This document shows positions 28,103-43,861 of a DNA stretch of 64,000 nucleotides, piece after piece. The DNA lies in the IMG/VR virus record IMGVR_UViG_3300025118_000006, positions 1 through 64,000 of that record; one strand, written 5' to 3'. Position 1 is the first letter of the stretch, and each line of letters begins with the position of its first letter. Position numbers and translations under genes: made by a program. The notes under the pieces are model-generated. The model saw only the letters and a list, made by a program, of their open reading frames with translations, was not told the DNA's origin and ran no database searches. The stretch comes from a virus.

Positions 28103-28539
28103 GCGTAACTATCACAAAGACTAATAACATCTCCGCTGAAGGCGATGTCCCGACGCTGGAGCAGACTATTCACGTAACCGCTGCGCCGTCGGTGCCTGTT
28201 GCGGCTCCGGCAAAGCCAGATGCGAATGACATTGCTTCTATCGCAATTATTGGTGCGACATGTGCAGTCATTGCCTACGGCTGCACTCAGGTGATTAAGT
28301 CGTTCTGCCAAGATCTGTTTCGGGTCCGCAAGATGGAAAAACCTTGGTGGTACCTCAGTCTGATAAGATTGCTTTGTATTGTTTTCGGTGGTGTTGCGGG
28401 GTTCTACTTGCAGGACTCGTTCGGTCCAGCCGAAGCGCATTTTGCAGTAGCTACTGGTTGCGGTGCGGGCGTCCTCTCTACATCAATCGTAGCGGTTGTG
28501 AAGAAGAAGATTAAAGCGGCTGCACCTTCGGACAAGTAA
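28099..28539 (+). CDS. putative holin (three TM segments)
   Basis: Three hydrophobic helices, basic C-terminus, lysis context. Confidence 0.6.
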   Translation: MSVTITKTNNISAEGDVPTLEQTIHVTAAPSVPVAAPAKPDANDIASIAIIGATCAVIAYGCTQVIKSFCQDLFRVRKMEKPWWYLSLIRLLCIVFGGVAGFYLQDSFGPAEAHFAVATGCGAGVLSTSIVAVVKKKIKAAAPSDK

Positions 28540-28883
28540 TGATACCCAGTTGGTTAAACAAAGCTTTGGGTGTCCCTATTGTTAAGTGGCTAATCGGGGC
28601 GGTTGCGCTCTTACTTGTGATTGTATGGGTGGCACTCAAGCGTATGTGGCTGCTCCAGCAACGGCTTATTGTGACACAGCAAATTCGCAACGTAGAGAAC
28701 AGCTACAATCGAGAGCGTGCAAAATTGCGATCAGACCAGCTATCAAAGCTAAATGCGCTGGCACTGAAGAGGGAGCGGCGGCATATCGAGCTAGAGCGTT
28801 CGAGGCGGGTCATTCGGAAGGCGCAAAACGAGGGTGTTGATGCGGTTGCTGGGATCGTAAACAAGGCTTTTAAGGGGAAATGA
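28539..28883 (+). CDS. putative i-spanin-like protein
   Basis: N-terminal TM segment plus coiled coil. Confidence 0.45.
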   Translation: MIPSWLNKALGVPIVKWLIGAVALLLVIVWVALKRMWLLQQRLIVTQQIRNVENSYNRERAKLRSDQLSKLNALALKRERRHIELERSRRVIRKAQNEGVDAVAGIVNKAFKGK

Positions 28884-29293
28884 TGCGGTCGGTTGCGCTG
28901 ATGCTTGTTATGGTTCTAGTTGGGCAAACCTCTCTAAAAGCACAGGTTTGCACTCAGGCGGTCGGAATCGAGGCTGGCGTCGTAACACCGTGCGACGGTG
29001 TGCTTTGGAGCCCTACGCACTCAGTACAGGCTGTGGAGTGCGTGTCTGTAGATCTACCGAAGTGTGTTGCAGATGTGGATTACCATAGCGGTCGGTCTGC
29101 TACTTGTCGCCAGCACATCTCGAAACTGGAGACATTGTGCGACGGGAAGATCGGCCAACTAATCGACATTGCTGAAGATGCTGCGGGCCTGAAGCCGGAG
29201 CCGTGGTATAAGAACCCGTGGCTGATGTTGGGATTAGGGGTGGTCATAGGCGGGGCTTCGGTTTACTATATTGGTACGAACTACGGGAACTAA
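28880..29293 (+). CDS. secreted Cys-rich protein with C-terminal TM segment (spanin-like)
   Basis: Signal peptide, six Cys, PWYKNPWLMLGLGVVIGG tail. Confidence 0.5.
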   Translation: MMRSVALMLVMVLVGQTSLKAQVCTQAVGIEAGVVTPCDGVLWSPTHSVQAVECVSVDLPKCVADVDYHSGRSATCRQHISKLETLCDGKIGQLIDIAEDAAGLKPEPWYKNPWLMLGLGVVIGGASVYYIGTNYGN

Positions 29294-29295
29294 GC

Positions 29296-30912
29296 ATGGG
29301 TTGGTTAAAAAACATCGTTGCGCCAGACGTTATTGATCTGGAAAAAGCACGCAAAGCCGAGGTTGTGAACAAGTCAAAGGCTTGGAGCTTCGACCCAAAC
29401 GAGCTACGGACAGGTCTGTACGGCGGGCCTGAAGTAGCGGAGCACCAAGGTACGCTAGGGGTCAATTACAACACACTTATGGTTATGAGCCGGGTGCCCA
29501 TTATAGGTGCCATTATACAGCTTAGAACAAACCAGTTAGCTGAATTCGCGATGCCACAAATGTCGCGCTACGGCCTTGGATTTAAGATCGCGATGCGCGA
29601 CAAAAAAGCCAAGGCGACGACAGCAGCGGAAAATCAGATTAAGGAAATACAGACGCTCATACAGACATGTGGTGGCTACAAGTACGAACCCCAAGGTTTC
29701 GAGGGTTTCATGCGGAAGATTGTTCGAGATTCGCTCACCTATGATCAAGCGAACTTCGAGGTTGTTTACAACAAGGCCGGTAAGCCCGGAGCTTTCTGCG
29801 CTGTGGATGCGATGACAATCAGAAGAGCTATCCCAAAGGACGCCAAGCGCAAGGGCGGGGCAGCAGGTCTTGACAGCAACGATAAGGATGCTTTCGTTCA
29901 GGTTCTAGGCAATAAGCAGGTAGCTGAATTCGGAAGGCAGGAGATGGCTTGGGGGATTAGAAGACCCAGGACTTGGATGAGAGTAAACGGCTACGGCTAT
30001 CCAGAGTTGGAAGAGTCGATGAGGATCATAACAAACCTCTTGAATGCGGCTGAATACAACTCAAACAACTTCACTCATGGAGTTCACGCGAATTCGATTC
30101 TGACAGTGAAGTCTGGGATGTCGAAAGAGGTGTTTGCGGCTTTCAGGCGACAGTTTTACGCAATGGTTTCCGGGGTTCGCAATGCGAAGAGAACACCGAT
30201 TATCCAGCTTGACCCAGAGATGAAGGAAGAAATCTCAAACGTGTCAATGAGCCAATCGAACAAGGAAATGGAATACTCCAACTGGATGTCTTTCCTCCTT
30301 AAAGTCTTGTGTAGCGTGTACGGCCTGGACGCGGCAGAGCTAGGCTTCGTGTATGGCAACGAAGGGCAGGCGGCTTCACTCTCGCAAAAAGGGCCGGAGG
30401 AGCGAATTGTCGCGTCGAAGGAGCGTGGGTTGAGGCCGCTCGTTCGTGCCGTACAGGGATGGATGAATCAGTGGGTTGTTTACCCGGTAGACGAGGATTT
30501 TGAGATTCAATTCGTAGGTTTCGACGCTCACTCTGAATCAGAAAAGGTAGAGCTAGACACGAAGGCTGTAAAAGCGTTTAAAACCGTAAACGAAATCCGC
30601 GCAGAACACGACCTACCGCCACTCGAAGACAGCGTTGCTGACATGGTCTTAGATCCAACTTACGTGCAGTTTGCAACGGCGGGTGGAGAAGAAGAGGGCG
30701 GCGAGGAAGAAGGCGACTACGGGTCATATTTTGATGACTCTAAAGGCGACGAAGGCGAAGATGACGAGGAAAAGGGAGAAGAGGAAGTGCCCAGTGGCAA
30801 GCCGAAGAAGCCAGAGCCTCGAAAAAAAGAAGGCGGCAAAGGCGACTATAGTGACTCCTTTGAAGAGAAAACAGAAAAAGGGCTCCGAACGGTCACTATC
30901 GAGGTGACCTAG
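29296..30912 (+). CDS. portal protein
   Basis: RDSLTYDQ, VDAMTIR, GYGYPELE, DAAELG, SKERGLRPL and TVNEIR motifs of Twort/SPO1-type portals; acidic tail. Confidence 0.9.
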   Translation: MGWLKNIVAPDVIDLEKARKAEVVNKSKAWSFDPNELRTGLYGGPEVAEHQGTLGVNYNTLMVMSRVPIIGAIIQLRTNQLAEFAMPQMSRYGLGFKIAMRDKKAKATTAAENQIKEIQTLIQTCGGYKYEPQGFEGFMRKIVRDSLTYDQANFEVVYNKAGKPGAFCAVDAMTIRRAIPKDAKRKGGAAGLDSNDKDAFVQVLGNKQVAEFGRQEMAWGIRRPRTWMRVNGYGYPELEESMRIITNLLNAAEYNSNNFTHGVHANSILTVKSGMSKEVFAAFRRQFYAMVSGVRNAKRTPIIQLDPEMKEEISNVSMSQSNKEMEYSNWMSFLLKVLCSVYGLDAAELGFVYGNEGQAASLSQKGPEERIVASKERGLRPLVRAVQGWMNQWVVYPVDEDFEIQFVGFDAHSESEKVELDTKAVKAFKTVNEIRAEHDLPPLEDSVADMVLDPTYVQFATAGGEEEGGEEEGDYGSYFDDSKGDEGEDDEEKGEEEVPSGKPKKPEPRKKEGGKGDYSDSFEEKTEKGLRTVTIEVT

Positions 30913-31202
30913 TGAAAGTAATCGTAAAAGAATCCTTTTCAGGAGAGCTTGACAGTCGCCACGCGGTAGAAAAATTGGAACAGGCTATAAGCGAGTTCTC
31001 AGAACTTGCTGGGTTGGGGGTGGGTAATTCGTTCCAAAAGCACACTTGTGATGGCCACGAGGTTTTGGAAAAGGCCGTAAAGACACACGACCACCGAGTG
31101 GACGCTGTCGATGAGATGGTTGAGTTAATGCGTAAGGCTTATGAGAAGCGCATGAAGGCGATGGTCAAAGACATCGCGAAGCGTGTCAGCGATGGCGTCT
31201 AA
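30912..31202 (+). CDS. small head-module protein
   Basis: GAGGTG SD; coupled on both sides. Confidence 0.6.
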   Translation: MKVIVKESFSGELDSRHAVEKLEQAISEFSELAGLGVGNSFQKHTCDGHEVLEKAVKTHDHRVDAVDEMVELMRKAYEKRMKAMVKDIAKRVSDGV

Positions 31203-33682
31203 TGTCCTTACCACCAAAAATAGATGACATAGTATCCGCGCACCACGATGGGTTCCTCTACGATCTTTTTGGAGAAAGCCTCGGTCTTCCACTGGAAAGG
31301 GTCGCTGAGTTGCGAAGTATGGGGATACTTCCTGATATCCCGGTACCAATTTTAGCCCGTGCAGGGCTGGACGTATTGGCTGCTCGCCCGCTCATGATGG
31401 CCATGATGATTGGTGCCGCAAAGCAGTCGATGGAACCTGGGAGGCGAAAACAGGCAGACCGATGGCCCGCAAAGAAGTGGGCCAAGCAAATCATCAGAGA
31501 TGCCCCTTCGGTAAGTTCACCACCCCCGACTATCCCCTCGGTGACACCTATCGGTGGCGATACGCCTGACCTTCCACCACCACCTCCTCCTCCTCCGACC
31601 GGATCGGGAGGTGGTGGGCCTAAACCACCGGACCCACCGGACTTTTTGACCGACCTACAGAGGCACTCTTGGACGCAAGCAAGGGAGCGTGCAGGATCGT
31701 TTGTTCGAGGGCTAGGTAACATTGTCACAGCAGAAGCAGAAACAACGCTTGCGGAAGTGTGGAACGGAGAGCAAATAGAGCGCGAGACAGACGCAGATAA
31801 GCGTGCAGAGGTTGTCGATATCATTCGGGAAGAGACGGCGGCAGCCACCGCCAACAACACGAAGTGGAGATCTAGTACAGCGCAAAAGCTCGCATCAAAC
31901 CTTGCACACAGGACTGGTGACTGGAGTCGCAATTGGGAGCGGATAGCGCGAACGGAGCTTCAGGGTGCGTACAATGAGGGCAGTGTGTTGGAGGCCATCG
32001 AATGGGACGGCCCAGACGCGCTCATAGCCAGAATACCTGAGCCAAGCGCGTGCGCTGATTGCCGACGTGTACACATGACACGAGATGGCAGGCCACGGGT
32101 TTTCAAGGCGAGCGACCTCATAAACAATGGTACAAATGTAGGCCGAAAACGCGCACAGTGGCAGGCTACTATCTGGCCCGTTCACCCGAATTGTAGATGC
32201 GACACGCAACACATCCCCGAGGGAATGGAGTTCGATGATGAGTGGGGGCTTGTATACAAGGCGTATTCATTCTCGCAGTTAGCGAACCTTGTAAAGGCCA
32301 AGGGCTATCTATACAAGGCAGGGCCTTTTATCGGTCCACGCGGTGGCAAGTGGGCTGACGCGAAGCATACGATAGCCTGGAAGGAAAAACAGACAACAAG
32401 GACTAAGGGGCATGAAATAGCAAGACTCCCGCCAGAGGTTCAATCAGAAATAGCAGGGGCGGTCACTTTTGTGACCCGCCTTTTTCCAGAATTGCAAGAT
32501 GTCCGCGTGGTGATTGCAGATCATGATCTTGGCCATTCTCACGCCACTAAGGACAGTAAAAAAATCAAGCTCAACCCCACAACTTGGCTGGACGTAAATA
32601 AGCTAAAACAGCAACGGGATGAGGCGGCAGGGCTGGTGGTAGATGGGTCGATCAAGGGCATTATCGTACACGAGTTAGGCCATATACTGGCTGGCCGAAT
32701 ACTCAACGCGCTTGGATCGAAAAAGTACAACGAAATAGCGCAAAAGCACTTAGGCGTACCGCAAGATGGCTTAGATCCGTGGGGAGAGCCTGTATTCACC
32801 ACGCTGTCTAACTCTGACATGCCAAGCGCATACGCTATGGATAACAGGAGCGAGTACGAGGCAGAAGCCTTTTCAGCAGCGGTATTTGGAAAAGCAGAAA
32901 CGAACCCCAAGTGGGCGGCAGGGGCTGTAAACAAGTCTAAAGCGTATTGGGCAGACATGCTCCACGCTTATCGAAATCTAAGCAAGTCATTAGCAAAATC
33001 CGGTCCCTACATCGGCCCTCGCGGTGGTAAGTGGGCTGACGCCAAGCATACAATTGCGTGGAAGGAAAAGTCTAAGAGGCAGCTTAAAAGGGAGGCTTCG
33101 GAGAAGAGAAAGAAGGCGCGAGCGAGCGCAGAAGGGCCTGCGGTAGAGGCGTATAACAAGGCCGTTAAAGACCACAACGAACACGATGACGCTGGGTATG
33201 ACGCAAACGCTTCGGACATGGTCGATGTCGCGTACGGCGGGTACGCACCGGCAAAAATAGACGCCATGAAGGTTTGGGCCAAAAAGGTGGGGCTAGAGGT
33301 TGGCGAAACTGATTTTTCAGGTGGAGCATCGTATGGCAGCGCGTACATACAATTGAAAGTTCCAGGCATCGGCGCGGTGGGAGGATCAGGACGGTTGGAC
33401 CGGGCCGTTGTTGTGAGAATGTCGGATCACGGAAACATGGCGCGAGTTGGCGGGCGGCTGCAAACTGACACAAACATAGCGCCTGATTTTGGTTGGACTT
33501 TCATGAAAGGGATAGGGCACGCGATTGGTATCTTGCGCGAACGCTTTCAAGAGCACCTCGACAACGCAGACGACGACGATTATTTCGACCAAGACCCAGA
33601 TGGCGATGCAGAGCGCAAGCGAATGGAAGAGGCTATGCCACTTCTTGACAAGCTCGGAAAGCTGTACCGAAAACCCGGTTAA
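31202..33682 (+). CDS. MuF (SPP1 gp7-like) head protein fused to a zincin domain and a second cargo domain
   Basis: WERIARTE, C..C, PVHPNCRC (MuF); HELGH...S.YA....EYEAEAF (zincin); two GPxIGPRGGKWADAKHTIAWKE tags. Confidence 0.85.
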   Translation: MSLPPKIDDIVSAHHDGFLYDLFGESLGLPLERVAELRSMGILPDIPVPILARAGLDVLAARPLMMAMMIGAAKQSMEPGRRKQADRWPAKKWAKQIIRDAPSVSSPPPTIPSVTPIGGDTPDLPPPPPPPPTGSGGGGPKPPDPPDFLTDLQRHSWTQARERAGSFVRGLGNIVTAEAETTLAEVWNGEQIERETDADKRAEVVDIIREETAAATANNTKWRSSTAQKLASNLAHRTGDWSRNWERIARTELQGAYNEGSVLEAIEWDGPDALIARIPEPSACADCRRVHMTRDGRPRVFKASDLINNGTNVGRKRAQWQATIWPVHPNCRCDTQHIPEGMEFDDEWGLVYKAYSFSQLANLVKAKGYLYKAGPFIGPRGGKWADAKHTIAWKEKQTTRTKGHEIARLPPEVQSEIAGAVTFVTRLFPELQDVRVVIADHDLGHSHATKDSKKIKLNPTTWLDVNKLKQQRDEAAGLVVDGSIKGIIVHELGHILAGRILNALGSKKYNEIAQKHLGVPQDGLDPWGEPVFTTLSNSDMPSAYAMDNRSEYEAEAFSAAVFGKAETNPKWAAGAVNKSKAYWADMLHAYRNLSKSLAKSGPYIGPRGGKWADAKHTIAWKEKSKRQLKREASEKRKKARASAEGPAVEAYNKAVKDHNEHDDAGYDANASDMVDVAYGGYAPAKIDAMKVWAKKVGLEVGETDFSGGASYGSAYIQLKVPGIGAVGGSGRLDRAVVVRMSDHGNMARVGGRLQTDTNIAPDFGWTFMKGIGHAIGILRERFQEHLDNADDDDYFDQDPDGDAERKRMEEAMPLLDKLGKLYRKPG

Positions 33683-33746
33683 AAACACACTTGTTGAACT
33701 GAAAGCCACTCCATAGTAATTTGAACTGAACAACTCGGAGCCCACA

Positions 33747-34496
33747 ATGAAGACTTTTCAAAGCCTGAACGACATTTACAAGGCTGCAAAGAAGCCAAAG
33801 AAGGAAGAGAAGGAACCTGAAGAAGAGGTGTCCGAGGGGCAAATGTCCTTGTTTGACGGCCTAAAAAAGGCCGCAGACGAAGAAGAGGACGAGGACGAGA
33901 AGCGCGACAAGAAGCTGCAACAACGGCTCGACGAAGAGGCGGCTGGTGGCGAGGAAGAGTATAAGCGGATGAAAGAGGAAGAGGCTGAGAAGTCTTTCTC
34001 GGGCCTCGAAGGAATGGACATTGTCAAAAACATGGCCAAGGTCCAGGCCGAAATGAAGAGCGGGAAGTCCGCGAAAGAAGCTGTTCAGGCCGCATACCCG
34101 GATTACACCGAAGAGCAGGTAGAGATCTTTGTGAAGGACATGAAGAAAGGCTACGGCGTCTATCGTGCCAAGAAGGAAAAGAAGATGATTAAGTCAGACA
34201 ATGAGAACACACGGCTTGTGGTGAGCCTCACAAAAGGCGCATTGGAAGAGAGCGTTTCGATCATGCGAGGTGGTCCAAGTCGAGCAGACGTGGCTACAGC
34301 GTTGGCTTCATCGATTAAGAAGGGTTTCAACATCCCTGCGGAGTTCCCAGAGATGATGTTAGACGATCTCGACACATGCTCTAACGTAGCTCGCAAGAGC
34401 TTTGCTAATGCGTGCATGATGACCGCATCGGGATACCCAGAATTGCAGGTAGCTGGCGACATGGTCGGGTACCTTGAAGAGCTTACAGAAGGATAA
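33747..34496 (+). CDS. highly charged head-module protein (internal/scaffold-like)
   Basis: GGAG SD; many hydrophobic-x-K-[ASG] sites. Confidence 0.6.
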   Translation: MKTFQSLNDIYKAAKKPKKEEKEPEEEVSEGQMSLFDGLKKAADEEEDEDEKRDKKLQQRLDEEAAGGEEEYKRMKEEEAEKSFSGLEGMDIVKNMAKVQAEMKSGKSAKEAVQAAYPDYTEEQVEIFVKDMKKGYGVYRAKKEKKMIKSDNENTRLVVSLTKGALEESVSIMRGGPSRADVATALASSIKKGFNIPAEFPEMMLDDLDTCSNVARKSFANACMMTASGYPELQVAGDMVGYLEELTEG

Positions 34497-34499
34497 ATT

Positions 34500-37400
34500 A
34501 TGGCAGATTTTACGTCGCTAATTCATGGTGGGCTCAACGATCTCCGCAAGGGGAAGGGTCCGTTTATCGGACCCCGTGGCGGCAAGTGGGCCGATGCCAA
34601 GCATACAATTGCGTGGAAAGAGGACGGTGGGAAGTCGGGTGGTAAAAAGTTCAAGCCGGACCCTGAGTATAAGTTAAGCTCGGAGGGGCATAACAAAAAA
34701 GACTACAACCGTGGCCTGAAGGAGGGGATGTCTAGCACGACAATCCCGCAAACGTCCGAAAAAGATAAGAAAGACACGAGCTATATGGCTGGCCTGAAAC
34801 AGGGCTTAATGGTGCAGATTAAGGCAAAAGACCACGCGAAAGCTCGCTATAAAATGCTGCGAGAAAGAGCAGACCGAGGTGAAAAGGGTGGGATTCCGAA
34901 GGGGTCTAGTGTCACCGAGAAAGTCTACATCGAGGCAAACACCGACGCCATCATGGAGAACATCCTGTCCGGCATGGAGCCGGACGGAAAGGGTGGCTAC
35001 AAGGGTGGCTATAGAAAAGCCTCCACCACCTTCTCGGACCTCGCGAAAGGAAAGCCCACAAAGTATCTCAAGCGTAAACGCGGCAAGGGTGGTCGCTACG
35101 AGTACACCTACGCCGAAGACGGTAAACCTAAGAAGAAGAAGGGCCGCTTTGGGAACCTTCTAAGCACGTTGATGGGTGTCGTTAAGAAGCATCCATACGC
35201 GCTGATGGGTGAGTTTAAGTCGATGGTACGCGACTTCGATTTGGATGAGCTAATTGAGATGCGCTCCGAGATCAAAGACGCACTCGAAGCGAAACCTGAG
35301 AAGAAGGCTCCGGGCGAGAAGAAGGCTCCCAAGAAAGAAACCGCCGAAAAGAAAAAGCCAGCCCCAAAGAAAGGCCCGTCGGAGAAAGATATTCTTCGCC
35401 AGATGCTCAAGGCCATCGACAAGATGATCGCCAAGAAGCAGGAGGCGAACTCGAAGCTAAGTCTGAGGAGCTTGGTCGCGGGCTATCACAAGGGCGACAC
35501 TGAAGCGATTAAAGAGCTATACAAGAGAGCGCAGGAATTGCTTCCTGGCATTCGCATCTCAGACGCTCTTAACGTGGTCGCAACGGCGGCTGAAAACTAC
35601 GGGAAATTGCCGAAAGAATTTGTGGACGAGATGATTCGGGAGAACCGGGTCAAGGGCAAGAAGCCACCCGCAGCCGCTACAGAAGAGGCTCCGAAGCCCG
35701 CTGCCAAATACGAACGCTCAAAGTGGGCTGATTTTAAGAGCCAAATGGCCTCGTCTGACGGCGGCGCAAAATTAAACAGGCAATACGCGGAATTCGCGAA
35801 AAACGCACTGAAAGCCACGTCAAAGAAAGACCTAAAGCACGCCATCGAACAGGCGAAGGCAGCGAGTAGAAAGGATGACACGGTGGTCACTAGGACTGGT
35901 GTCGGGTATTCGACAGGAATCAAAGGCAAATTAAAGCGATTGCAAGCCCACTTGGAAAACAAGCTCAAGCTAGTGTCCAAGTATGGCGAGAGCGGGTTGG
36001 CCAAAGAAAGCGAAAAAAAGCAGAAAGAAAAGAAGCCAGTCACTCCGCAAGTTCCCGCGATGGAGGGCATGGCACCACTTGGAATAGCTCCGAAGCCCGC
36101 TGGCGAGGACATTGGCGTAGCCAAAGAGAGAGGCGACAACCGATACAAAAGCTCTGGCACCACCGACAAGGCCACGAATCACGATGAGATTATCGCCGCT
36201 GGCGGGGAATACCTCGGTCAAGGTGTGTACACGGATAAAGGTCCACCCAAGGCAAAGCGTGGGAAAAAGGGCAAGGTTGAGATCGTCCACCGTGGAGAAA
36301 AGAAACTGACCGATGGGACCATCTACGGCAAGGGTGACTGGGCCATCACTAAGCAACTTGAGTCGAAAAGGGTTACAGTGACAAACATAGCTACCGGGCA
36401 CTCCATCGGTGGCGAGATGTCCGGGCCACAGGCTTCGTACTTGATGGACCAAGTCATGGAATTGGAAGCGAGTGGAAAGCTGGACGGGTTCGACCCAGAC
36501 AATTTGTCCTCATCGTCATCAAAACCAGCGTTTGATGCTCTCAAGAAAGTCGCAGACGAAGTGCGCGAGGAAGGTAACTCTGGTATGCCTATCTGGAGCC
36601 GACGAAACAAGGCGAAACGAGAGGCTAACAGGCGGGCGAAGGTCGAGAAGCTCACCGAAGCAGCGTCCGTGAAAGGCGTCATCAGCCGCCCACTAGCCCT
36701 GGCTGATGTGAAAAGAAAAGAGCACAAGAGCGGAGAGGCCGCTCACAAGCGGGCAAGAAATTTTCAATCTACAGACGAATTCCGACTAAATCTTCAGCAG
36801 TCCATAGTAGACCGTTTCGAGGGCGAGCAGTACATGATTTCAACGGACGGCCACAGGATGGCGTTGATACCAGTATCGAATGACGTGAAACAAGGGGTGG
36901 GCTACGGCGAGGGTTCGCGAGATGCTCTGGGTGGAGGACGTGAATTTCCAAACTATAAGCAGGTCATACCGGATGACCGGAAGGCAAATGACACCCACGA
37001 CTTCGACGCCGAAACACTGCTGGCGCACGCGAAGCTGGGGGCATCGACGCCGGGTGTCATGGCGGGTTACGTTCATTTATACGCAGACGGTGGTGCCCAC
37101 AAAGCCCAAGCCAGTCATTCGGCTGTGATATCGCCTGAAGTTGACGAGAGGGAAAAGGGCATGGCGGGGATCGCTCTTGCGGAGTCCAAGCGCCCTTCCA
37201 CTGCGGGCGAGCCCACCGGAGGCGACAGCAAGAGCATCTCGGTGAACGCAAGGTATTTGGTAGACGCCCTTGAGGGCGCAAAAGGCTCAGTGTCCGTGTA
37301 TTACAAGGACAAAGGTAGCCAGATGATCATTGAAAGAGCCGATGGCGAGATACACGTCATCATGCCTGTGCGTGATGCTATGCCGAAGGACCACCCACAC

Positions 37401-39818
37401 AGGACGGAAGAGTGGGAGGTAAGCCCAGCCAGCAAGTCCTTCACCAACTTCTCCGATCTTTTCAAAGCGAAGCCCACCAAGTACAAGACTCGCAAGCGCG
37501 GAAAGGACGGAAGGTGGGTTTACACGTATGCTGAGAAGAAGGCACCGAAATCGCGGATGGGCGCGTTCTTGAACAAGATTGTCGGCTTTTTCTCTGAGCA
37601 CCACGACAAAGAGGATAACCTCATAGCGGCAGAAAAGAAGCTCATCTACGATCTGGAAACGCCACAGCTTGAGATGCTTAGGGATGCGATAAAGGCCGAA
37701 CTGGCCGCGATGGAAAAGAAGCCTGTTCCGGGGGCAAAGAAAAAGAAGCCCTCAAAGAAACGCTCGGGAGCACCCGTAACAGCAGAAAAGAAGGGGCCGT
37801 CACGCAAGCAAATTCTTCAGCAACTTCTTGCGAAGATCGATGGAGAGTTGGCTGCTCGCGCAATCGTGGGCTCCGCACCAACGGAGTCCGAAGACAACTT
37901 CGAGACGATGCCTGATGAGGAGTCCATCGGGCACCGTAGAGCCCGAGAAGTAATGGCCATGACCGTGAGCGATGCTTCACGGCTTGCGAGCGAAGAGCCA
38001 GGGACTCCGTTACGAGCCCCACACCACACAACATCGACACAAGGTTTACTCGGTGAACTTGACCAAGCGCAGGGGGGCATCCTATTTCTCGACCAGATCG
38101 AGGACTTCTCCCTTGAGTCGATCAAAAAGCTCGCAGTTGCGATGCGAGACAACCCCTATGTGATGATCGGGTACAGAACCACCGGCACCGGCACCGAAAC
38201 CGACAAGGTGAAGCTGAAGGCCCGCCTCGAAGCCCTGGGTGTTGATGTCAGCATGTGGGATGCCAATGAGGGCGTATCCGAAGACAACTTCGAGACGATT
38301 CAAGAGCACTATAGCGCGAAGAAGCAGCTTCTCAGAGACGTGGACGTTGTTCGCGCCTCGAAACTTAATGAGCTTAACGTGCCGTCACACTCGGAAATTA
38401 TGGACCACGCGGTCAATCATTCCCATTATAGGCACGTTAAGCCAGCCTTTAAGAGTGCCAAGGAGAAAATTGACCGCCTAAATGAAGCTCTTGCGGCGCT
38501 AGGTGTAAGAGAGTGGCGGGGTTACAAAATAAAGCCGTTCGCCTCTAGCGACTTAGATGACTTAATCGCGATGAGGGATCAGATACGGCGCGATGAAGAA
38601 GCCCTAAGCGCGAGGGTGGGCTTGGTTTCGGTAGACCTTCCGTCGAATTCAATGATTGGCCGTGAGCATCCCGAGGTAGGGCCACAGATCAGGGAGGAAA
38701 GGGAGAAGTTAGAGGAGGTCAAATCGGCTATTGCAGCTTACAACAATGAGGGCACATCCGAAGACAACTTCGAGACGATGCCTGAAGCAACCACGCCCGT
38801 AAGCCAAGCGCATGAAGAGAATCGCCTGGACGCTGAGTTGCGAAGCAACAACACCAGCGAGCAGAAGGCCAACGAGAACATCTTCACGTATGCCGAAAAT
38901 GCCTTGGACCCGGACTCGCTTAAATTCGTCATCGAGTGGTCAGAAAGTGGTGCTGTAGAAGACGGCCAAGAGTTCGCATCAGTCAATGAGCTTAACGCCA
39001 AATTGCAGGAAATATCCGACCACCATAGGGAGCGGTACGGTCTTGGTGGTGGCTACTTTAAGACAAAGGTCTACGCTGAACTTGAGGGCAATCGGTTCTT
39101 TGGCAACCGTCTGGACGTTACATCGGGCGGCGAAGACGTAAATCTGGTAGATCACATGACTGCGATTTCTCATTATTACCAGTCCGACAGGGGTCGAGAA
39201 TATTGGTCGGCGGTTCAGGCTAACCAACGTGACAGGGGTGAAGAGACAGGCGAGCAGGCGCACGAGCGGGCGCAGTCGTATAAGAACATGGTTCAGCTAG
39301 TGCGGGACCATCAAAGAATTGCCAGTGGCTACGACATCGCAGGGGGCGACCCTCCTCAAGTAAAGTCTAAGAGAGAGTTAGACAAACTATCCGAAACAAG
39401 AAGAGCACAGGCCGATGCTTGGGAACAAGCAGAGCGAGAGGCCGAACAAAGAGCCGCCCAGGATGCTCACGCGGCTCGAACAGCAGGCTGGGAAGCCCCG
39501 CAGAGCAGGCGAGAGGTAACCAAGCGCGTTAAGCGAGCTATCGTTCAGGCGACTGGTTTGCCAGCGAAGGACGTTAGCGTTCGTGGTTCAACAGGGACCG
39601 CCTGGGGGTGGGTACGGATAAGCGGAAAAACGCAAGCAGCGCAAGCGGCTATTGATGCGTTTCAGGGAAGGACTTATTGGGGCAACATTTCTCCAGATGA
39701 CTGGGACAGGGCAACGCTAGAGTTTGAAATTGGTGCGGGCATTCACACTCCGGGCTCTATCTCGCGAGGCGGCTTCACTAACTTCTCAGACCTGCTCAAA
39801 TCAATAGGCCGTGCCTAA
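34500..39818 (+). CDS. large polyvalent protein / polyprotein with beta-clamp-like, ComM-like and LPD25-like domains
   Basis: STDGHRMA, FPNYKQVIP, NARYLVDAL, VIMPVR; PLRAPHH, ILFLDQ; IEWSES..GGYFKTK; repeated tags. Confidence 0.8.
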   Translation: MADFTSLIHGGLNDLRKGKGPFIGPRGGKWADAKHTIAWKEDGGKSGGKKFKPDPEYKLSSEGHNKKDYNRGLKEGMSSTTIPQTSEKDKKDTSYMAGLKQGLMVQIKAKDHAKARYKMLRERADRGEKGGIPKGSSVTEKVYIEANTDAIMENILSGMEPDGKGGYKGGYRKASTTFSDLAKGKPTKYLKRKRGKGGRYEYTYAEDGKPKKKKGRFGNLLSTLMGVVKKHPYALMGEFKSMVRDFDLDELIEMRSEIKDALEAKPEKKAPGEKKAPKKETAEKKKPAPKKGPSEKDILRQMLKAIDKMIAKKQEANSKLSLRSLVAGYHKGDTEAIKELYKRAQELLPGIRISDALNVVATAAENYGKLPKEFVDEMIRENRVKGKKPPAAATEEAPKPAAKYERSKWADFKSQMASSDGGAKLNRQYAEFAKNALKATSKKDLKHAIEQAKAASRKDDTVVTRTGVGYSTGIKGKLKRLQAHLENKLKLVSKYGESGLAKESEKKQKEKKPVTPQVPAMEGMAPLGIAPKPAGEDIGVAKERGDNRYKSSGTTDKATNHDEIIAAGGEYLGQGVYTDKGPPKAKRGKKGKVEIVHRGEKKLTDGTIYGKGDWAITKQLESKRVTVTNIATGHSIGGEMSGPQASYLMDQVMELEASGKLDGFDPDNLSSSSSKPAFDALKKVADEVREEGNSGMPIWSRRNKAKREANRRAKVEKLTEAASVKGVISRPLALADVKRKEHKSGEAAHKRARNFQSTDEFRLNLQQSIVDRFEGEQYMISTDGHRMALIPVSNDVKQGVGYGEGSRDALGGGREFPNYKQVIPDDRKANDTHDFDAETLLAHAKLGASTPGVMAGYVHLYADGGAHKAQASHSAVISPEVDEREKGMAGIALAESKRPSTAGEPTGGDSKSISVNARYLVDALEGAKGSVSVYYKDKGSQMIIERADGEIHVIMPVRDAMPKDHPHRTEEWEVSPASKSFTNFSDLFKAKPTKYKTRKRGKDGRWVYTYAEKKAPKSRMGAFLNKIVGFFSEHHDKEDNLIAAEKKLIYDLETPQLEMLRDAIKAELAAMEKKPVPGAKKKKPSKKRSGAPVTAEKKGPSRKQILQQLLAKIDGELAARAIVGSAPTESEDNFETMPDEESIGHRRAREVMAMTVSDASRLASEEPGTPLRAPHHTTSTQGLLGELDQAQGGILFLDQIEDFSLESIKKLAVAMRDNPYVMIGYRTTGTGTETDKVKLKARLEALGVDVSMWDANEGVSEDNFETIQEHYSAKKQLLRDVDVVRASKLNELNVPSHSEIMDHAVNHSHYRHVKPAFKSAKEKIDRLNEALAALGVREWRGYKIKPFASSDLDDLIAMRDQIRRDEEALSARVGLVSVDLPSNSMIGREHPEVGPQIREEREKLEEVKSAIAAYNNEGTSEDNFETMPEATTPVSQAHEENRLDAELRSNNTSEQKANENIFTYAENALDPDSLKFVIEWSESGAVEDGQEFASVNELNAKLQEISDHHRERYGLGGGYFKTKVYAELEGNRFFGNRLDVTSGGEDVNLVDHMTAISHYYQSDRGREYWSAVQANQRDRGEETGEQAHERAQSYKNMVQLVRDHQRIASGYDIAGGDPPQVKSKRELDKLSETRRAQADAWEQAEREAEQRAAQDAHAARTAGWEAPQSRREVTKRVKRAIVQATGLPAKDVSVRGSTGTAWGWVRISGKTQAAQAAIDAFQGRTYWGNISPDDWDRATLEFEIGAGIHTPGSISRGGFTNFSDLLKSIGRA
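37887..38785 (+). repeat. three copies of TCCGAAGACAACTTCGAGACGAT (37887, 38277, 38757)
   Basis: 23-nt identity in all three copies; encodes SEDNFET; spacing 390 and 480 bp. Confidence 0.95.
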
Positions 39819-40036
39819 TGCAGCCAGCCCAGCCCCCAAAGGATACAGCAATTGTGTGCGATTACTGCGGTTTTCGCTTGGGCGTCTGGGTTAAATCACG
39901 CCTAAAGATACACGTTCGGAGTCGGCTTTTAGTGGTAAGAAAAAGTGGACAAGCTGAGTTGAGATGTCACAATTGTAAAAGCGACACTCTACTTCCTCTT
40001 TTTCTACCTCTGGAGCAGCCATGTTCATCTGGTTAA
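39818..40036 (+). CDS. small zinc-ribbon protein (Mu Com-like regulator candidate)
   Basis: CDYC...ELRCHNCK; upstream of the head protease leader. Confidence 0.55.
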   Translation: MQPAQPPKDTAIVCDYCGFRLGVWVKSRLKIHVRSRLLVVRKSGQAELRCHNCKSDTLLPLFLPLEQPCSSG

Positions 40037-40476
40037 ACGTACTTCTGACTATGATGTTCCTTCCGGTTGCGCTGTTGTTTGGTAAAATTAAGCGAGTCGG
40101 GCTCTGTAAGGACGCAGTAAACGATCAGGTAAACGAAGCGTTTCCCGTGTCGAAGTGGACCCCGTATTTAGATCTTGAACCACGAGGCTGGTTTAGGTGT
40201 TGGATGGAGAGGAATGGGATCGGTGGTATGGCGTGCCTCGGGTACGTGTTTATCCAACAAAGACACGAGTTAATTGTGTTCCATGAGTGCGTGCATGTGA
40301 TGCAGCAGAGCGCGGTGAGCCCTGCACTGATAGGTCTTACCTACCTTCTGGACATAATCGTGTTCCTTCCGTGGCGTGGATGGTTCAAGGAGGGAGAGGC
40401 TAAGAGGGTGTCCACGGTAGAGGTCGTAGCGTACCGGGTGACAGGGCAAGACGAGTGGTCTTCGGGACAAGATTAA
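40021..40476 (+). CDS. membrane protein with HExxH zincin-like motif
   Basis: HECVHVMQQ and a distal E..AY. Confidence 0.6.
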   Translation: MFIWLNVLLTMMFLPVALLFGKIKRVGLCKDAVNDQVNEAFPVSKWTPYLDLEPRGWFRCWMERNGIGGMACLGYVFIQQRHELIVFHECVHVMQQSAVSPALIGLTYLLDIIVFLPWRGWFKEGEAKRVSTVEVVAYRVTGQDEWSSGQD

Positions 40477-40480
40477 ATAC

Positions 40481-40569
40481 TTGACACCGATCTTGGCCCG
40501 GACAAGAATGTGCAGAGAGGCCCGTAGTTTAGGGGCGCGAGAATCCGTGTGGTTTTTGTGCCTTTTTTT
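40481..40569 (+). promoter_or_regulatory. promoter plus leader terminator (attenuator) before the head genes
   Basis: TTGACA-17-AAGAAT; GU-rich stem 40534-40545/40551-40562 plus T7. Confidence 0.6.
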
Positions 40570-40582
40570 GTTTTGGTGATTT

Positions 40583-41341
40583 ATGTACGAGAATAATATC
40601 GACGTATTCAGCGCATGGACCCCGTTCGACGTTGTCGAAAAGGGTGAGTCCGAAAGCAGTCCTAGTGGTCGTATCTCCGGTGTTGTTTCAACTGAGACGG
40701 TAGACCAACAGGGCGAGCAGGTTGTACAGAAGGGCCTCGACTGGGACTATTTCCTGAGCAAGGGTTGGTTCAACTGGGAGCACGCGGCTGGGCCTGAAAA
40801 TGTTCTAGGGTACCCAGACAAGGTTGAACCCGTAGAAATCAACGGAACCCACGCAACTCGCGTAGAGGGCCGTCTCTTGATGAACAAGGCTAAGGCCAAA
40901 GAAATTTACAATACGGCGGTAAGTCTACAGAAGTCGGAATCAAACCGACGGCTTGGATTTTCCATCGAGGGTCAGGTGTTAGAGCGCGAAGGGAAGACGA
41001 TCAAAAAAGCTCGTATTCTCAATGTTGCGATAACTGCTCACCCGATTCATCCAGACGCACGTTTGGAGATCCTAGCGCAATCACTCCTCGCCCGCGCCGC
41101 CTCTGTCGGCTATCAAACCCCAGCCGGTGAGGGCGGCTCTATAGCACCTTTGGTCGCACAATCTCTGGAAGGCTCAGTTTCAACTGCCACCTTCGGGGCT
41201 CGTGGTCTTGAAGCGTATTTGAAGAGCTTGAAAGAGGAAGACCTGATTGCGCTGCGTATTCTAAAGAGCTTTCCAACGCTCAATTTTGGAGACGCACATT
41301 CCATAGTAACAGACTTTTTACGAAAAAAGGGAGTCCTCTAA
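40583..41341 (+). CDS. prohead protease
   Basis: ISGVVSTE.VD.QGE, FNWEH, LGFSIEG, NVAIT..P.HP motifs. Confidence 0.88.
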   Translation: MYENNIDVFSAWTPFDVVEKGESESSPSGRISGVVSTETVDQQGEQVVQKGLDWDYFLSKGWFNWEHAAGPENVLGYPDKVEPVEINGTHATRVEGRLLMNKAKAKEIYNTAVSLQKSESNRRLGFSIEGQVLEREGKTIKKARILNVAITAHPIHPDARLEILAQSLLARAASVGYQTPAGEGGSIAPLVAQSLEGSVSTATFGARGLEAYLKSLKEEDLIALRILKSFPTLNFGDAHSIVTDFLRKKGVL

Positions 41342-42063
41342 TGAAGAAGGCAACGCAACTCCGAGAGGAGTTAAACGGCGTGCTTGCGGACGGGGAAGTA
41401 GATCGCGTAGTAAAATCCGCGATTGACGCTGGAACAGTCGAGAATGACATCGACTACAAGCCAGCGGTAGATCCAGAAGCACTCGACGTAGCACTCGAAG
41501 CCGTTAAGAAAGCGATGAATATCGCTAAAGAAGAAGTATCAACTGAGCAAGCACTAGCTCAAGCCGAAGAGATTGAGGAAGAAGTTTCCAAGTCTCTTAG
41601 CTTTGACGAAGTCGCTCTCGCAGAAGAAGAGGACTACGTTGATGTAACGGACGTTCTCGACACAATCACAAAGGGCGCAGACAGCCTTCTGAGTGAGATT
41701 CGCCACGAGCACACAGTGTTGGCAAGCGCAATCACTGAGATGACTGCTGTATACCGCGACATCGCTAAGGGCATCAACGCGCTTAGTGGTCGAGTCGGTG
41801 ACCTAGAGAACGAAACCAAAGAGGTCCAAAAGGGTCTTGCCATTACTCCTGAACGTAAATCCGTTACAGGCACGTTAGAGGCAGTTCCCCACCCAGGTGA
41901 CGCTCCAGTGCAGCTTGACCGCGCCGGACTCATCCAGAAGGGCCTGACACTTCTTGAAACTTCGACTGAGCCAATGAAGCAAGCAGAACTCTCGAAAGCC
42001 ATTTCGCTTTTGGAGTCTGGTGCTGACATTAACGAAGTCGTAAGCAATTACCATCTTAACTAA
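41341..42063 (+). CDS. scaffold-like protein
   Basis: Acidic and helical, between protease and capsid genes, dense in xxK[SAG] sites, P.RKSV motif. Confidence 0.7.
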   Translation: MKKATQLREELNGVLADGEVDRVVKSAIDAGTVENDIDYKPAVDPEALDVALEAVKKAMNIAKEEVSTEQALAQAEEIEEEVSKSLSFDEVALAEEEDYVDVTDVLDTITKGADSLLSEIRHEHTVLASAITEMTAVYRDIAKGINALSGRVGDLENETKEVQKGLAITPERKSVTGTLEAVPHPGDAPVQLDRAGLIQKGLTLLETSTEPMKQAELSKAISLLESGADINEVVSNYHLN

Positions 42064-42077
42064 GGAGGGCTTTCATT

Positions 42078-43508
42078 ATGCTTTCAATGCCCCAAGCAAA
42101 CGACCTAGTGTCGGTGAAGGACTTGCATGAGCTTAACAAAGCTCTCCGCAAGGCCACAGCGGCTGGCTACCAGACACCAGCCAGCCAAACACCAGACGGC
42201 AACACCACCTTTAGCCCACTGGTGCCTCAATCTATTGAGGCGACTCTCGCTTCAAAAACTTTCACTATGGACGAACTCGTTCTGTGGAAAATGCTGCCTA
42301 AACGCGCAGTTTCTCAAACCGTTCATGAGTACACCGTTGTAAATGAGCATGGTGGAGATATGGACCCATTCTTCGTGGAAGGTGGTGGTGGATATGAATC
42401 CCTCAGCACTTACGAAAGAAAGAGTCTGCGAATCAAGTACCTCATGGAAAAGCGAGAGGTTACTGACGTGGCCTCTATGGTCGGAATCATCGGCAATAAC
42501 GCAAACGCTATTGCTGAAGCCACCGAGCGTGGAACCATCTCTCTTTTGAGCAAGTTGGAGAAGCAGCTTTTTATCGCTGACTCCAGCATCAACCCACTTG
42601 CATTCGATGGTATCGATAAGCAGATGGCTGATGGCGCTCCTAACAATGTCAGCAACCTTGCTGGTGATGACCTTACTCCAATGAAGTTGCAGGAAATCCT
42701 GTCTGGCTCCTATGCCGAGCCAAACTTCGGTAAGCCATCCGTAGTTCTCGTTGAGCCTCGCGTACACGCGCAGCTTATTGAGCAGGCTACTGCTTATGGT
42801 CGCCACGACATGATGGGCACGGGACAGGGAACAATGACCTTCGGTCGTTCCGACCTCCGCATCTCGGTGCCTTACGGTACTGGTTCCGTACCTGTAGTTG
42901 GTTGCCCGTTCTTGTACCCAGAAGGTGCACCGAACGCAGCCGCTGTTGGTACTGCACCGACAGCACCTTCTGCTTTCAACACCCCTACCGTTGCAACTCA
43001 CGCTTCTTCCCTGTTCCTCTCCGGCGATGCCGGAACTTACTACTACCACGCGGTAGCAGTAGGACAGGGCGGTAAGTCAGCACCGATTGTGTCGGCTGCT
43101 ATAACAGTAGCTGCTGGTGAGCGAGTATCCGTTGGTATTAACGATGACGCCCTTGCTACACCAGTAAGCGGCTCCGAGAACACTGCAAGTATCTTGTACT
43201 ACAAGATTTATCGCAGCACGACCGGCGTCCACGCTGATGCAAAGTGGGCCTTCAACGTCAAGAAAGCGGATACCAGTAGTGACACCGCATTCAACGATGA
43301 CAACCTTCACCGCCCTGGCATGTCCAAGGCGTATGCTCTTCAGATGACTCCAGATGTAATCGAGTGGGTAAAACTTCTCGACTTCATCCGTCGTCCTCTT
43401 GCAGAGGTGAAGACCACTAAACCATTCTTGCTCATGCTCTTTGGTGCGCTAAACATCAAAGTTCCGACCAAGAACTGGCTTATCCGTAACATCAAGACTA
43501 ATCCTTGA
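42078..43508 (+). CDS. major capsid protein
   Basis: KA...GY.T N-arm, PL..QSIE.TL, TVHEY, FDG..K; AAGGAGG SD; position in the head module. Confidence 0.9.
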   Translation: MLSMPQANDLVSVKDLHELNKALRKATAAGYQTPASQTPDGNTTFSPLVPQSIEATLASKTFTMDELVLWKMLPKRAVSQTVHEYTVVNEHGGDMDPFFVEGGGGYESLSTYERKSLRIKYLMEKREVTDVASMVGIIGNNANAIAEATERGTISLLSKLEKQLFIADSSINPLAFDGIDKQMADGAPNNVSNLAGDDLTPMKLQEILSGSYAEPNFGKPSVVLVEPRVHAQLIEQATAYGRHDMMGTGQGTMTFGRSDLRISVPYGTGSVPVVGCPFLYPEGAPNAAAVGTAPTAPSAFNTPTVATHASSLFLSGDAGTYYYHAVAVGQGGKSAPIVSAAITVAAGERVSVGINDDALATPVSGSENTASILYYKIYRSTTGVHADAKWAFNVKKADTSSDTAFNDDNLHRPGMSKAYALQMTPDVIEWVKLLDFIRRPLAEVKTTKPFLLMLFGALNIKVPTKNWLIRNIKTNP

Positions 43509-43600: not shown

Positions 43601-43861
43601 ATGGCGGTAATCTGGAAACATAAAACAATTCGCAACAGCACTGTTGTGGTTGGCTCTGAAACCTATCAGATTGATGGAGAAGGCGTTTTGTCGCCTGAAT
43701 TGTCGGAGCCAGCATCAACACGTTTGCTAGGTATTCCCGGCTATTCGTGTTCGCGAGTGCCCGATGCGAAGCCAAAAGAAAAACCTGCGCCGAAGAAAAA
43801 TCCAGCAGCCAAAAAGGCTGCCCCAAAGAAAAAAGCGGCTGCAAAGCCTAAGAAAAAATAA
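43601..43861 (+). CDS. small protein with Lys/Ala-rich tail
   Basis: GGAGG SD; KKAAPKKKAAAKPKKK. Confidence 0.7.
   Translation: MAVIWKHKTIRNSTVVVGSETYQIDGEGVLSPELSEPASTRLLGIPGYSCSRVPDAKPKEKPAPKKNPAAKKAAPKKKAAAKPKKK

Follow-up and report, generated by a model that had tools for sequence, protein, structure and literature searches.

In phage T4, the prohead protease gp21 cuts at [LI]-x-E/ sites (the slash, here and below, marking the scissile bond), degrades the scaffold gp22, and processes the internal proteins IPI–III and Alt. The capsid-targeting propeptides of the ejected T4 proteins, for their part, are 10–19 residues long and end at the protease motif (PMC9026906); and in phiKZ and SPN3US one prohead protease (gp175/gp245) cuts many head-internal and ejected proteins at a short motif, which motif has Glu at P1 and whose identified cuts, besides self-cleavage, remove N-terminal propeptides (PMC10052503). 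For the HK97-like phage phi12, a study of 2021 recognized no cut-site feature in common beyond a basic P1 (PMC8569155). The polyvalent proteins, as described by Iyer et al. (2017; PMC5512222), are large, multidomain, virion-associated proteins with MuF, metallopeptidase-like, and LPD domains, for which an autoprocessing by the metallopeptidase (MPTase) has been proposed. Here we analyze the head module at positions 29296–43508 (plus strand) of the first 64 kb—hereafter the window—of the 78.5-kb IMG/VR virus record IMGVR_UViG_3300025118_000006, which record is estimated to be 54% complete. The proteins of that module carry the tetrapeptide motif [LIVMF]-x-K/[ASG], at which, to judge from its statistics and conservation, a distant prohead protease of the S78 type probably recognizes its substrates, and which also stands at the domain junctions of two large fusion proteins.

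This part of the window encodes a head module that belongs to an uncultured, SPO1-like myovirus, with the genes for the portal, a 96-aa protein, an 826-aa MuF fusion, a highly charged 249-aa protein (ORF33747), a 1772-aa polyvalent protein, two small open reading frames (ORFs), the prohead protease, the scaffold, and the major capsid protein (MCP), with the large terminase upstream and the adaptor, sheath, and baseplate genes downstream. The closest cultured relatives are the Herelleviridae and Thermus phages, at 28–37% identity for the protease and 25–30% for the MCP; no nucleotide-level relative was found among cultured phages by megablast with the head genes, and a search for related loci with the MCP alone as the query gave no match. 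The position of the protease gene between the portal and the scaffold/MCP is common to SPO1, 812, LP-064, EF24C, LysYB1, phiMa, and the metagenomic locus L054. With the Herelleviridae (SPO1, K/812, A511/LP-064, phiEF24C), whose proteases are 28–37% and whose MCPs are 25–27% identical to those of the window, the module shares the gene order portal, protease, scaffold, MCP, and it shares as well the motif enrichment and a protease site joined to a copy of the MCP N-arm, both described below. In contrast to the window, the Herelleviridae have no MuF or polyvalent genes between portal and protease and neither of the two sequence tags, termed here the GP-tag and the KY-tag, that follow the junction sites.

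The initial annotation of this DNA had listed individual tetrapeptides and had described the head-module proteins as dense in them. Every listed tetrapeptide is present where it had been reported, along with a few more. Compared with the expectation from composition, [LIVM]-x-K-[ASG] occurs 9 times versus 1.0 (P = 1.3e-6) in the 240-aa scaffolding protein (41341–42063, plus strand), 7 times versus 1.0 in the protease, 6 versus 1.5 in ORF33747, 7 versus 2.9 in the MuF fusion, 4 versus 1.6 in the MCP, 2 versus 2.0 in the portal, and 6 versus 9.0 in the 1772-aa protein. A separate test with 2000 composition-preserving shuffles, in which Phe was also admitted at P3, gave 45 matches versus 22.4 for the eight head proteins together, which count was reached by none of the shuffles; 22 versus 3.9 for the scaffold, protease, and ORF33747; and 9 versus 3.2 for the MuF fusion (reached by 11 of the 2000). 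The 15 connector/tail ORFs (17 versus 17.8) and the 25 upstream, early ORFs (20 versus 20.7) both remained at the shuffle expectation. The contrast between head and tail that had been anticipated is therefore real, because the head counts exceed the shuffles while the tail and early genes match them. Nevertheless, since the 1772-aa protein is not enriched overall (6 versus 10.1 in the shuffles) and the portal is at expectation, "dense" fits only a part of the module.

The expected gathering of the sites at domain boundaries was likewise found in the two large proteins. In the MuF fusion, 5 of the 9 sites lie in or at two linker segments of low predicted local distance difference test (pLDDT) values that make up 11.7% of the protein (P = 0.002); and in the 1772-aa protein 4 of the 6 sites are in repeated junction modules or at homology breakpoints, the remaining 2 falling below the 10.1 expected (Poisson P = 0.0026). 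As to the residue at P1, an unbiased test with 8 central residues in 14 scaffolds recovered a strong context for Lys only (L/I/V at −2, and S at +1, 3.4-fold), with Glu, Asp, and Arg in the same scaffolds having no such flanking context. The scaffold sites of the window, for their part, are all invariant in relatives of 84% and 70% identity, even within a variable stretch, and would delimit fragments of 19–36 aa.

The same pattern extends throughout the family. The scaffolds of SPO1 and LysYB1 contain 11 sites each versus 1.3 expected, that of 812 contains 7 versus 1.3, that of phiEF24C 6 versus 1.2, that of the Thermus phage phiMa 6 versus 1.0, and that of LP-064 just 3, while the scaffolds of eight metagenomic relatives have 6–12 sites versus 0.5–2 expected; the proteases of the six cultured phages are enriched in the motif as well. 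With the P3 and P1' classes held fixed, Lys outranks the 19 other residues at P1 in the scaffolds of 12 of 13 phages, the exception being LP-064. The MCP of the window (42078–43508, plus strand; phrog_752, 3.7e-54) starts with a putative propeptide (residues 1–25; nucleotides 42078–42152) that ends in LNK21/A LRK25/A; and in each phage MCP one such site stands right before the conserved N-arm, as LNK/A in SPO1 and LysYB1, VVK/S in 812, VIK/G in EF24C, FAK/A in phiMa, LRK25/A in the window, and, among the metagenomic relatives, LRK/S in L054 and L[NR]K/A in 10 others. The kayvirus MCP chains of PDB entries 9row, 9rox, and 9roz begin with S25, directly after VVK24, although the start of a SEQRES record is the depositors' choice and not a measurement of the cut, a point to be held against our interpretation.

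In HK97 gp5, the motif is found at FNK103/S104, which is the known maturation bond, and three further matches (IQK, LTK, and LIK) lie within the delta domain. The MCP of the A511-like LP-064 reads ALK/SFTTGYG, in agreement with the Lys–Ser bond at which the capsid of the Listeria phage A511 is reportedly matured. Keyword searches of the literature turned up no statement of a cleavage motif for the Herelleviridae. The initial reading of the motif as a prohead-protease site is thus supported by the family-wide enrichment in scaffolds and proteases, the end of the MCP propeptide, the start of the kayvirus chains, and the bond in HK97 gp5, and we regard it as very likely that the prohead protease cuts the scaffold and the MCP after the motif Lys; the cleavage of the cargo proteins, in contrast, is a prediction from the junctions described below.

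The protease itself (252 aa; 40583–41341, plus strand) belongs to PHROG 1028, annotated as "head maturation protease" (phrog_1028, 1.3e-45), with a weak match to Pfam PF04586, Peptidase_S78 (E 0.046, 14.3 bits, below the cut-off of 21), which family is matched by 6 of 13 clade proteases (best, 5.7e-5). A PDB sequence search with the window protease gave no match; when the alignment of the proteases was used as a profile against the PDB, the sole matches were to PDZ domains, were brought about by the LGFS string, and were rejected as spurious. In an AlphaFold2 (AF2) model made from 13 sequences, the core residues 30–150 have pLDDT values of 73–89, and the top three Foldseek matches of that model are chains of T4 gp21 (5JBL; probability 1.0, E 1e-4, template-modeling score on the target 0.47–0.55), the model thus pointing to an assemblin-like fold. 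His67 (in NDNH) and Ser127 (in LGFSVEG) are invariant in those 13 sequences and, by that invariance, are candidate catalytic residues. The enzyme is therefore probably a distant serine prohead protease of the S78/HK97-gp4 type; that it is active with the proposed specificity we infer from the motif statistics, the PDB chain start, and the HK97 sequence.

The protease N-termini of the clade share a conserved [VF][FW]EK/[AG], which site in the window is VEK20/G and adjoins a low-confidence loop of the model. Toward the other end, residues 169–204 (41087–41194) repeat residues 23–62 of the MCP (42144–42263) as GYQTPA...PLV.QS.E, with 40% identity and an E of 4e-5; a further site, ILK228/S, follows. 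A site plus an N-arm copy is also present in the proteases of SPO1, 812, LP-064, EF24C, LysYB1, phiMa, and all the metagenomic relatives, and in the window the usual VLAK/S is changed to ILAQS. To judge from this arrangement, the protease is probably tethered within the prohead by the N-arm copy and later released.

The MuF fusion (31202–33682, plus strand) consists of a MuF domain (residues 1–353), recognized weakly but consistently (phrog_4728, 3e-7; PF04233, E 0.005; also phrog_115); of a GP-tag with an HExxH metallopeptidase-like module (373–599; VHELGH, with 18.3 bits to Peptidase_M48, below the cut-off of 20.3); and of a second GP-tag with a C-terminal module (600–826) that matched nothing in the PHROG, Pfam, and ESM Atlas scans. 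Two cargo fragments, when submitted to the ESM Atlas, had no match. MuF polymorphic toxins, for comparison, combine an N-terminal MuF domain with a toxin domain at the C-terminus. The first junction (32252–32320, plus strand) comprises VYK353/A, LVK365/A, and LYK372/A, lies at the onset of a segment with pLDDT below 50 (354–407), is conserved in the relatives P0007 and P0008, and is followed by GP-tag copy 1, GPFIGPRGGKWADAKHTIAWKE (32321–32386, plus strand). The second (32978–33001, plus strand), with LSK595/S and LAK599/S, is at the edge of another such segment (598–630), is present in P0009 (37% identity) as LSKA/GP-tag, and is followed by copy 2, a GPY variant (33002–33067, plus strand). 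The AF2 model of this fusion has a low overall confidence, with the MuF core well predicted and the stretches of junction plus tag below pLDDT 50. The GP-tag has 22 residues, GP[FY]IGPRGGKWADAKHTIAWKE, and its three copies each stand behind L-x-K-[AGS]; copy 3 (34557–34622, plus strand), located in the polyvalent gene, is 100% identical to copy 1 as protein. The three DNA copies differ at 11–14 of 66 nucleotides, with all but one difference per pair at the third codon position, which distribution indicates that the tag is under strong purifying selection.

The 1772-aa polyvalent protein (34500–39818, plus strand; phrog_947) is made up of a leader, a GP-tag cargo, two KY-tag cargo blocks, three junctions of the SEDNFET type, an LPD25 domain (PF18840; 29.1 bits with that fragment as the sole query, the cut-off being 27), and clamp-like and AAA-like (Mg_chelatase/Sigma54 fragment) pieces. 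An internal duplication of 135 aa (E 2e-23) has each of its blocks opened by a KY-tag. The leader, MADFTSLIHGGLNDLRK17/G (34500–34553, plus strand), is conserved in P0044 and in P0005—the latter being the polyvalent protein of the relative of 70% identity—and is joined there straight to a KY-tag. In the window, the first KY-tag (KPTKY..RKRGKGGRYEYTY; 35052–35114) follows the junction FSDLAK183/G (35028–35114 with the tag, plus strand), and the second (37470–37532) follows FTNFSDLFK989/A (37440–37532 with the tag, plus strand), at which latter place P0005 has FTNFSDLLKA/KPTKY; a last site, FTNFSDLLK1767/SIGRA (39774–39815, plus strand), lies at the C-terminus, with ANFSDLLKS/TGHA as the counterpart in P0005. 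The tag consensuses are GP[FY]IGPRGGKW..H.I.W and KY..R.RG..GKW.Y.Y (KPTKY..RKRGK.GR..YTY in the window), and since a R-G-(x)-G-K-W turn is common to the two, both may be related hairpins; at all events, both probably form hairpins. The predicted products would be of 38.8, 24.5, and 24.8 kDa from the MuF fusion and of 18.1, 88.2, and 86.9 kDa, plus the 17-residue leader, from the polyvalent protein; the earlier estimate of about six products from two genes agrees with this junction map.

Beyond the window, the exact core GP[FY]IGPRGGKW was found in the IMG/VR contigs in 75 stretches, a single locus having as many as 5 copies. Almost all of those loci have a portal homologous to that of the window (E 1e-72 to 1e-143), and the ones with a long enough flank include its protease and MCP families too. 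A motif Lys precedes 74 of the 85 distinct GP-tag copies (87%) by 1–5 residues, versus a background of 4.7% at random positions of the same proteins, the spacings of 1, 2, 3, 4, and 5 occurring 38, 21, 10, 3, and 2 times; most of those sites have Leu at P3, with Ser, Asp, or Asn at P4. Searched with a profile built on the KY-tag junction, 1.84 billion proteins yielded 20 further ones, and 34 of 40 KY-tags (in 21 proteins) have a Lys site at most 7 residues upstream, with His instead in three. Two different tags therefore share the upstream motif at variable spacing, which circumstance makes the motif an element of its own. The KY-tag is widespread in large metagenomic proteins (P0045–P0063), where a single protein can contain as many as three or four copies.

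His before some tags was noted in P0049, P0053, L022, and L031 (DILH/ARSHKY, LFHGH/GPY, MFHPA/GPY) and may represent a variant P1 or a different enzyme; the scaffolds of L011, L031, and L058, in which loci the tags are preceded by His or by nothing, are still of the Lys type. Neither tag was found by tblastn among 50,697 cultured phage records, and the 1571-aa protein of phiMa and the 872-aa protein of LysYB1 contain neither tags nor junction sites. The GP-tag core did occur in 4 of about 185,000 species genomes, all of them metagenome-assembled (L084–L087: two Myxococcales, one Lentisphaeria, and one Sedimentisphaerales), which finding hints at Gram-negative environmental hosts.

Comparison with the relatives indicates where the cassettes begin and end. 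In P0005, the conserved leader is joined straight to the KY-tag and residues 18–183 of the window protein are absent, so that those residues constitute an extra cassette bounded by two sites. In L054, the MuF protein stands alone, with 354 aa and no site, and the polyvalent protein begins with MRFSDLVK/G plus a GP-tag. In P0007, the middle MuF cargo is replaced by another domain between two junctions of site plus tag, with the third module retained; and in MuF fusions of greater distance the cargos that follow these junctions are Zeta-toxin-like and RelA/SpoT-like. Mosaic relatives carry Zeta_toxin, RelA_SpoT, Topoisom_I (topoisomerase IB), and ART-PolyVal domains. The junction of site plus tag thus appears, on comparison of these sequences, to be a unit of recombination, at which cassettes would be inserted, deleted, and swapped.

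The 1772-aa protein also has a Lys-free junction motif, [SA][ED]DNF[ED]T[MI]P, at 37887–37916, 38277–38297, and 38757–38777. Three to four copies of it are present in P0005 and four to five in the polyvalent protein of L054 (poly1668), with different domains between the copies, and none was found in the other 74 loci; the motif might be cut by a different protease, perhaps the HExxH module, or might serve for docking. Strings of the form Q-[LM]-x-L-F-D (GQMSLFDG; QLGLFD) were noted near junctions in ORF33747 (residues 31–38; 33837–33860) and in L013, L036, L050, L059, and L064. They resemble the sliding-clamp-binding motif of bacteria, QL[SD]LF, and have no overall enrichment; residues 815–959 of the polyvalent protein are similar to a clamp/processivity factor (phrog_947, 2e-8).

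One proposal of the initial annotation, namely that F-x-x-F-S-D-L is a capsid-targeting element that is cut off, finds no support in the junctions. At the internal ones the element lies upstream of the scissile bond and would therefore stay on the C-terminus of the preceding fragment; moreover, it is a feature of one lineage (the window, P0005, and L054), agrees with the P4–P3 preference [SDN]-L seen in general, and is much less conserved than the tags that follow the cut. A removal like that of the T4 capsid-targeting sequence would concern the short N-terminal leaders alone: those ending at a site comprise 17 aa in the polyvalent protein, 12 aa in ORF33747, and 8–18 aa in L054, P0016, P0044, P0048, P0058, and P0062. 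ORF33747 (33747–34496, plus strand), whose leader is MKTFQSLNDIYK/A and which contains five more sites, matched no family in the PHROG and Pfam scans and is a candidate internal or core protein. In the portal (29296–30912, plus strand; phrog_12, 1.9e-45; PF04860), an N-terminal stretch of 15–35 residues ends, in this clade, in [LF]-x-K/[AGS] (29296–29380 in the window, with the candidate sites LEK17/A and VNK26/S), and a site is found within the first 40 residues of the portal homologues in 32 of 41 related loci; this conservation suggests that the portal N-terminus is also trimmed.

The scheme that we propose would operate as follows. The prohead protease would cut after the Lys of [LIVMF]-x-K/[ASG], preferably of [SDN]-L-x-K/[GAS], and would, within the assembled prohead, remove the 25-residue propeptide of the MCP, chop the scaffold into peptides of 2–4 kDa able to leave the shell, and trim its own N-terminus and C-terminal region together with the N-terminus of the portal. 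Two large proteins, the MuF fusion and the polyvalent protein of 1772 aa, would be cut by the same enzyme at their interdomain junctions, and each released cargo piece, starting with a GP-tag or a KY-tag, would remain inside the head until ejection together with the DNA; for the tags themselves, the candidate roles are an encapsidation signal, a docking site for the protease, and DNA binding or ejection. That the cargo is cut at the junctions by the prohead protease we consider reasonably likely, and we favor to the same degree the more general proposition of a T4-like logic with a different chemistry, in which one protease of assemblin fold would cut after Lys and release several tagged cargos from polyproteins. 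That a portable "cut-and-tag" junction governs the loading of polyvalent effectors throughout a very large uncultured SPO1-like clade, with the tags as the encapsidation, docking, or ejection signal, is a tentative extension, which we hold to be possible rather than probable.

A number of observations weigh against this scheme. A motif this short and degenerate will match by chance about 0.3 times per 100 residues; and of the 7 matches in the protease itself most belong to the folded core, where it is impossible for all of them to be cut, the presence of a site not being the same as its cleavage. The overall count in the 1772-aa protein, given above, is no higher than in the shuffles; and an avoidance of sites within the cargo domains was not seen when all tag-bearing ORFs were counted (507 non-junction sites in the cargo proteins of other loci versus 342 expected, in stop-to-stop ORFs with noisy controls), so that we claim a depletion for the 1772-aa protein of the window only. 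The AF2 models are of modest quality (pLDDT 68.7 and 53.8), and the clade is known from metagenomic sequence alone, with neither tag in any cultured phage. The density of the motif might even be a functionless by-product of composition or of helical, charged sequence, in keeping with its four loosely defined positions, with the helical structure of scaffolds and their high content of K, E, A, S, and L, and with its having been picked for the initial annotation after the sequences had been seen. Since, however, composition-preserving shuffles never attain the count of the eight head proteins, Lys alone among the residues compared has a context and ranks top of 20 at P1 in 12 of 13 scaffolds, the sites are invariant inside a variable scaffold stretch, and 87% of the GP-tags versus a background of 4.7% are preceded by a site, we deem that explanation so improbable as to be nearly negligible.

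Two other alternatives accept the cutting of the scaffold and MCP and differ as to the cargo. Under one of them the site is cut in the scaffold, MCP, protease, and portal, and in the cargo the L-x-K-[GAS] is left uncut as part of a docking or encapsidation signal—a tag together with a decoy that resembles a site—whose partner is either the protease or the inside of the shell, the polyvalent proteins being packaged whole. The site five residues before the C-terminus of the 1772-aa protein, which has no obvious purpose as a cleavage site, is better explained as such a binding motif; 11 of the 85 GP-tags (13%) have no nearby site; the protease's C-terminal site and MCP N-arm copy show that a site with a downstream element can act in targeting; and no processing accompanies the transfer of the N4 virion RNA polymerase and of some polyvalent proteins of plasmids (PMC5512222). 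A docking signal is harder to reconcile with a Lys-to-tag spacing that varies from 1 to 5 and with the use of one motif by two different tags; furthermore, the junctions are predicted to be flexible and exposed, so that an active protease of this specificity would be expected to cut them, and the leaders that end at a site resemble the propeptides removed in T4. Packaging of the uncut proteins is, on balance, unlikely in our judgment, though it is the strongest competitor of cleavage by the prohead protease. The other alternative, which we judge to be quite improbable, would have the cargo cut either by the zincin-like (HExxH) metallopeptidase modules that it contains or by a protease of the host, with the SEDNFETMP junctions as perhaps the true autoprocessing sites. 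The motif before the tags is the same as that in the scaffold and MCP, which are prohead-protease substrates; many tag-bearing proteins, such as P0011 and P0016, are without a metallopeptidase module; and the M48 match is under the Pfam cut-off. HExxH modules are nonetheless present in the MuF fusion (VHELGH), in poly1668 of L054 (HEWGH), and in P0009; the Lys-free [SA][ED]DNF[ED]TMP does delimit swapped domains in the window, P0005, and L054; and metallopeptidase modules within the same proteins have been put forward earlier as processing enzymes, with autoprocessing proposed for P1 DdrB and other polyvalent proteins (PMC5512222).

As to the remaining genes of the module, the conserved small head-module protein of 96 aa (30912–31202, plus strand) has the sites LEK/A and MRK/A, and its homologue p93 in L054 retains LEK/S. 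The two small ORFs between the polyvalent gene and the protease (40021–40476 and 39818–40036) matched no family; one encodes 151 aa with a hydrophobic N-terminal segment and an HExxH string, FHECVH, and the other, 72 aa with two CxxC pairs. Directly 3' of the MCP gene, an ORF of 86 aa (43601–43861) has a Lys/Ala/Pro-rich, histone-H1-like C-terminal tail, and its product may, from that tail, be a DNA-binding or decoration protein. Directly 5' of the portal, 26844–29293 encodes an endolysin-domain protein and three small membrane proteins (holin/spanin-like), which placing of lysis-type genes is the same in the Listeria and Enterococcus Herelleviridae. Three small ORFs at 28021–29293, one with 3 sites, were considered as head proteins and rejected, as they look like membrane or lysis proteins.

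Set beside the described systems, the one proposed here resembles that of T4 in the protease fold (the 5JBL match), in a motif of three positions, aliphatic at P3 and small at P1', and, as far as the scheme goes, in the breakdown of the scaffold to small peptides, the self-cutting of the protease, and the short N-terminal propeptides. It differs from T4 in having Lys rather than Glu at P1 and several cargos in one polypeptide, each with a tag after the predicted cut; and no cargo fragment matched the T4 internal proteins (IP/Alt) in PHROG or Pfam. By analogy, then, the system would work like the processing of the T4 internal proteins without being a member of it. The weak but consistent Peptidase_S78 matches and the motif at FNK103/S104, with its three delta-domain matches, recall HK97 gp4/gp5, from which the window differs through its separate scaffold, its predicted internal cargo, and a very distant protease that is under the Pfam cut-off. 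Different from phiKZ and SPN3US, the scheme predicts the release of several tagged cargos from one chain. With the polyvalent proteins of Iyer et al., the proteins of the window share the presence of several unrelated domains in one polypeptide, including LPD25, AAA-like, clamp-like, and MuF. Term searches in the text of that article (PMC5512222) found neither the junction motif nor the two tags described there, nor any connection with the prohead protease; and the string of the GP-tag was not found in a full-text search of the searchable library. Protease-processed ejected proteins (T4, phiKZ-like) and polyvalent proteins are thus already known, whereas no description was found of a Lys motif as the defined site of this family of proteases, of the coupling of that motif to two conserved tags, or of a cassette exchange at the junctions.

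HK97/SPO1-type prohead proteases are everywhere, and their specificity is poorly defined. A rule [LIVMF]-x-K/[ASG], covering the Herelleviridae, HK97, and hundreds of metagenomic head modules, would predict mature capsid N-termini, the fate of the scaffold, and the packaged products from the sequence. Trypsin also cuts after Lys, and standard virion proteomics would therefore be blind to these sites, which blindness may explain why the pattern went unnoticed. In addition, the processing and head loading of the polyvalent/MuF effectors have been open questions since the description of those proteins, for which questions a cutting of the junctions by the head protease offers a testable answer. 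If the proposal is true, any domain behind such a junction would be taken into the head, set free by the protease, and then injected; and the cut-and-tag junction would explain the rapid shuffling of the cassettes and give a design rule for the delivery of proteins by phage heads.

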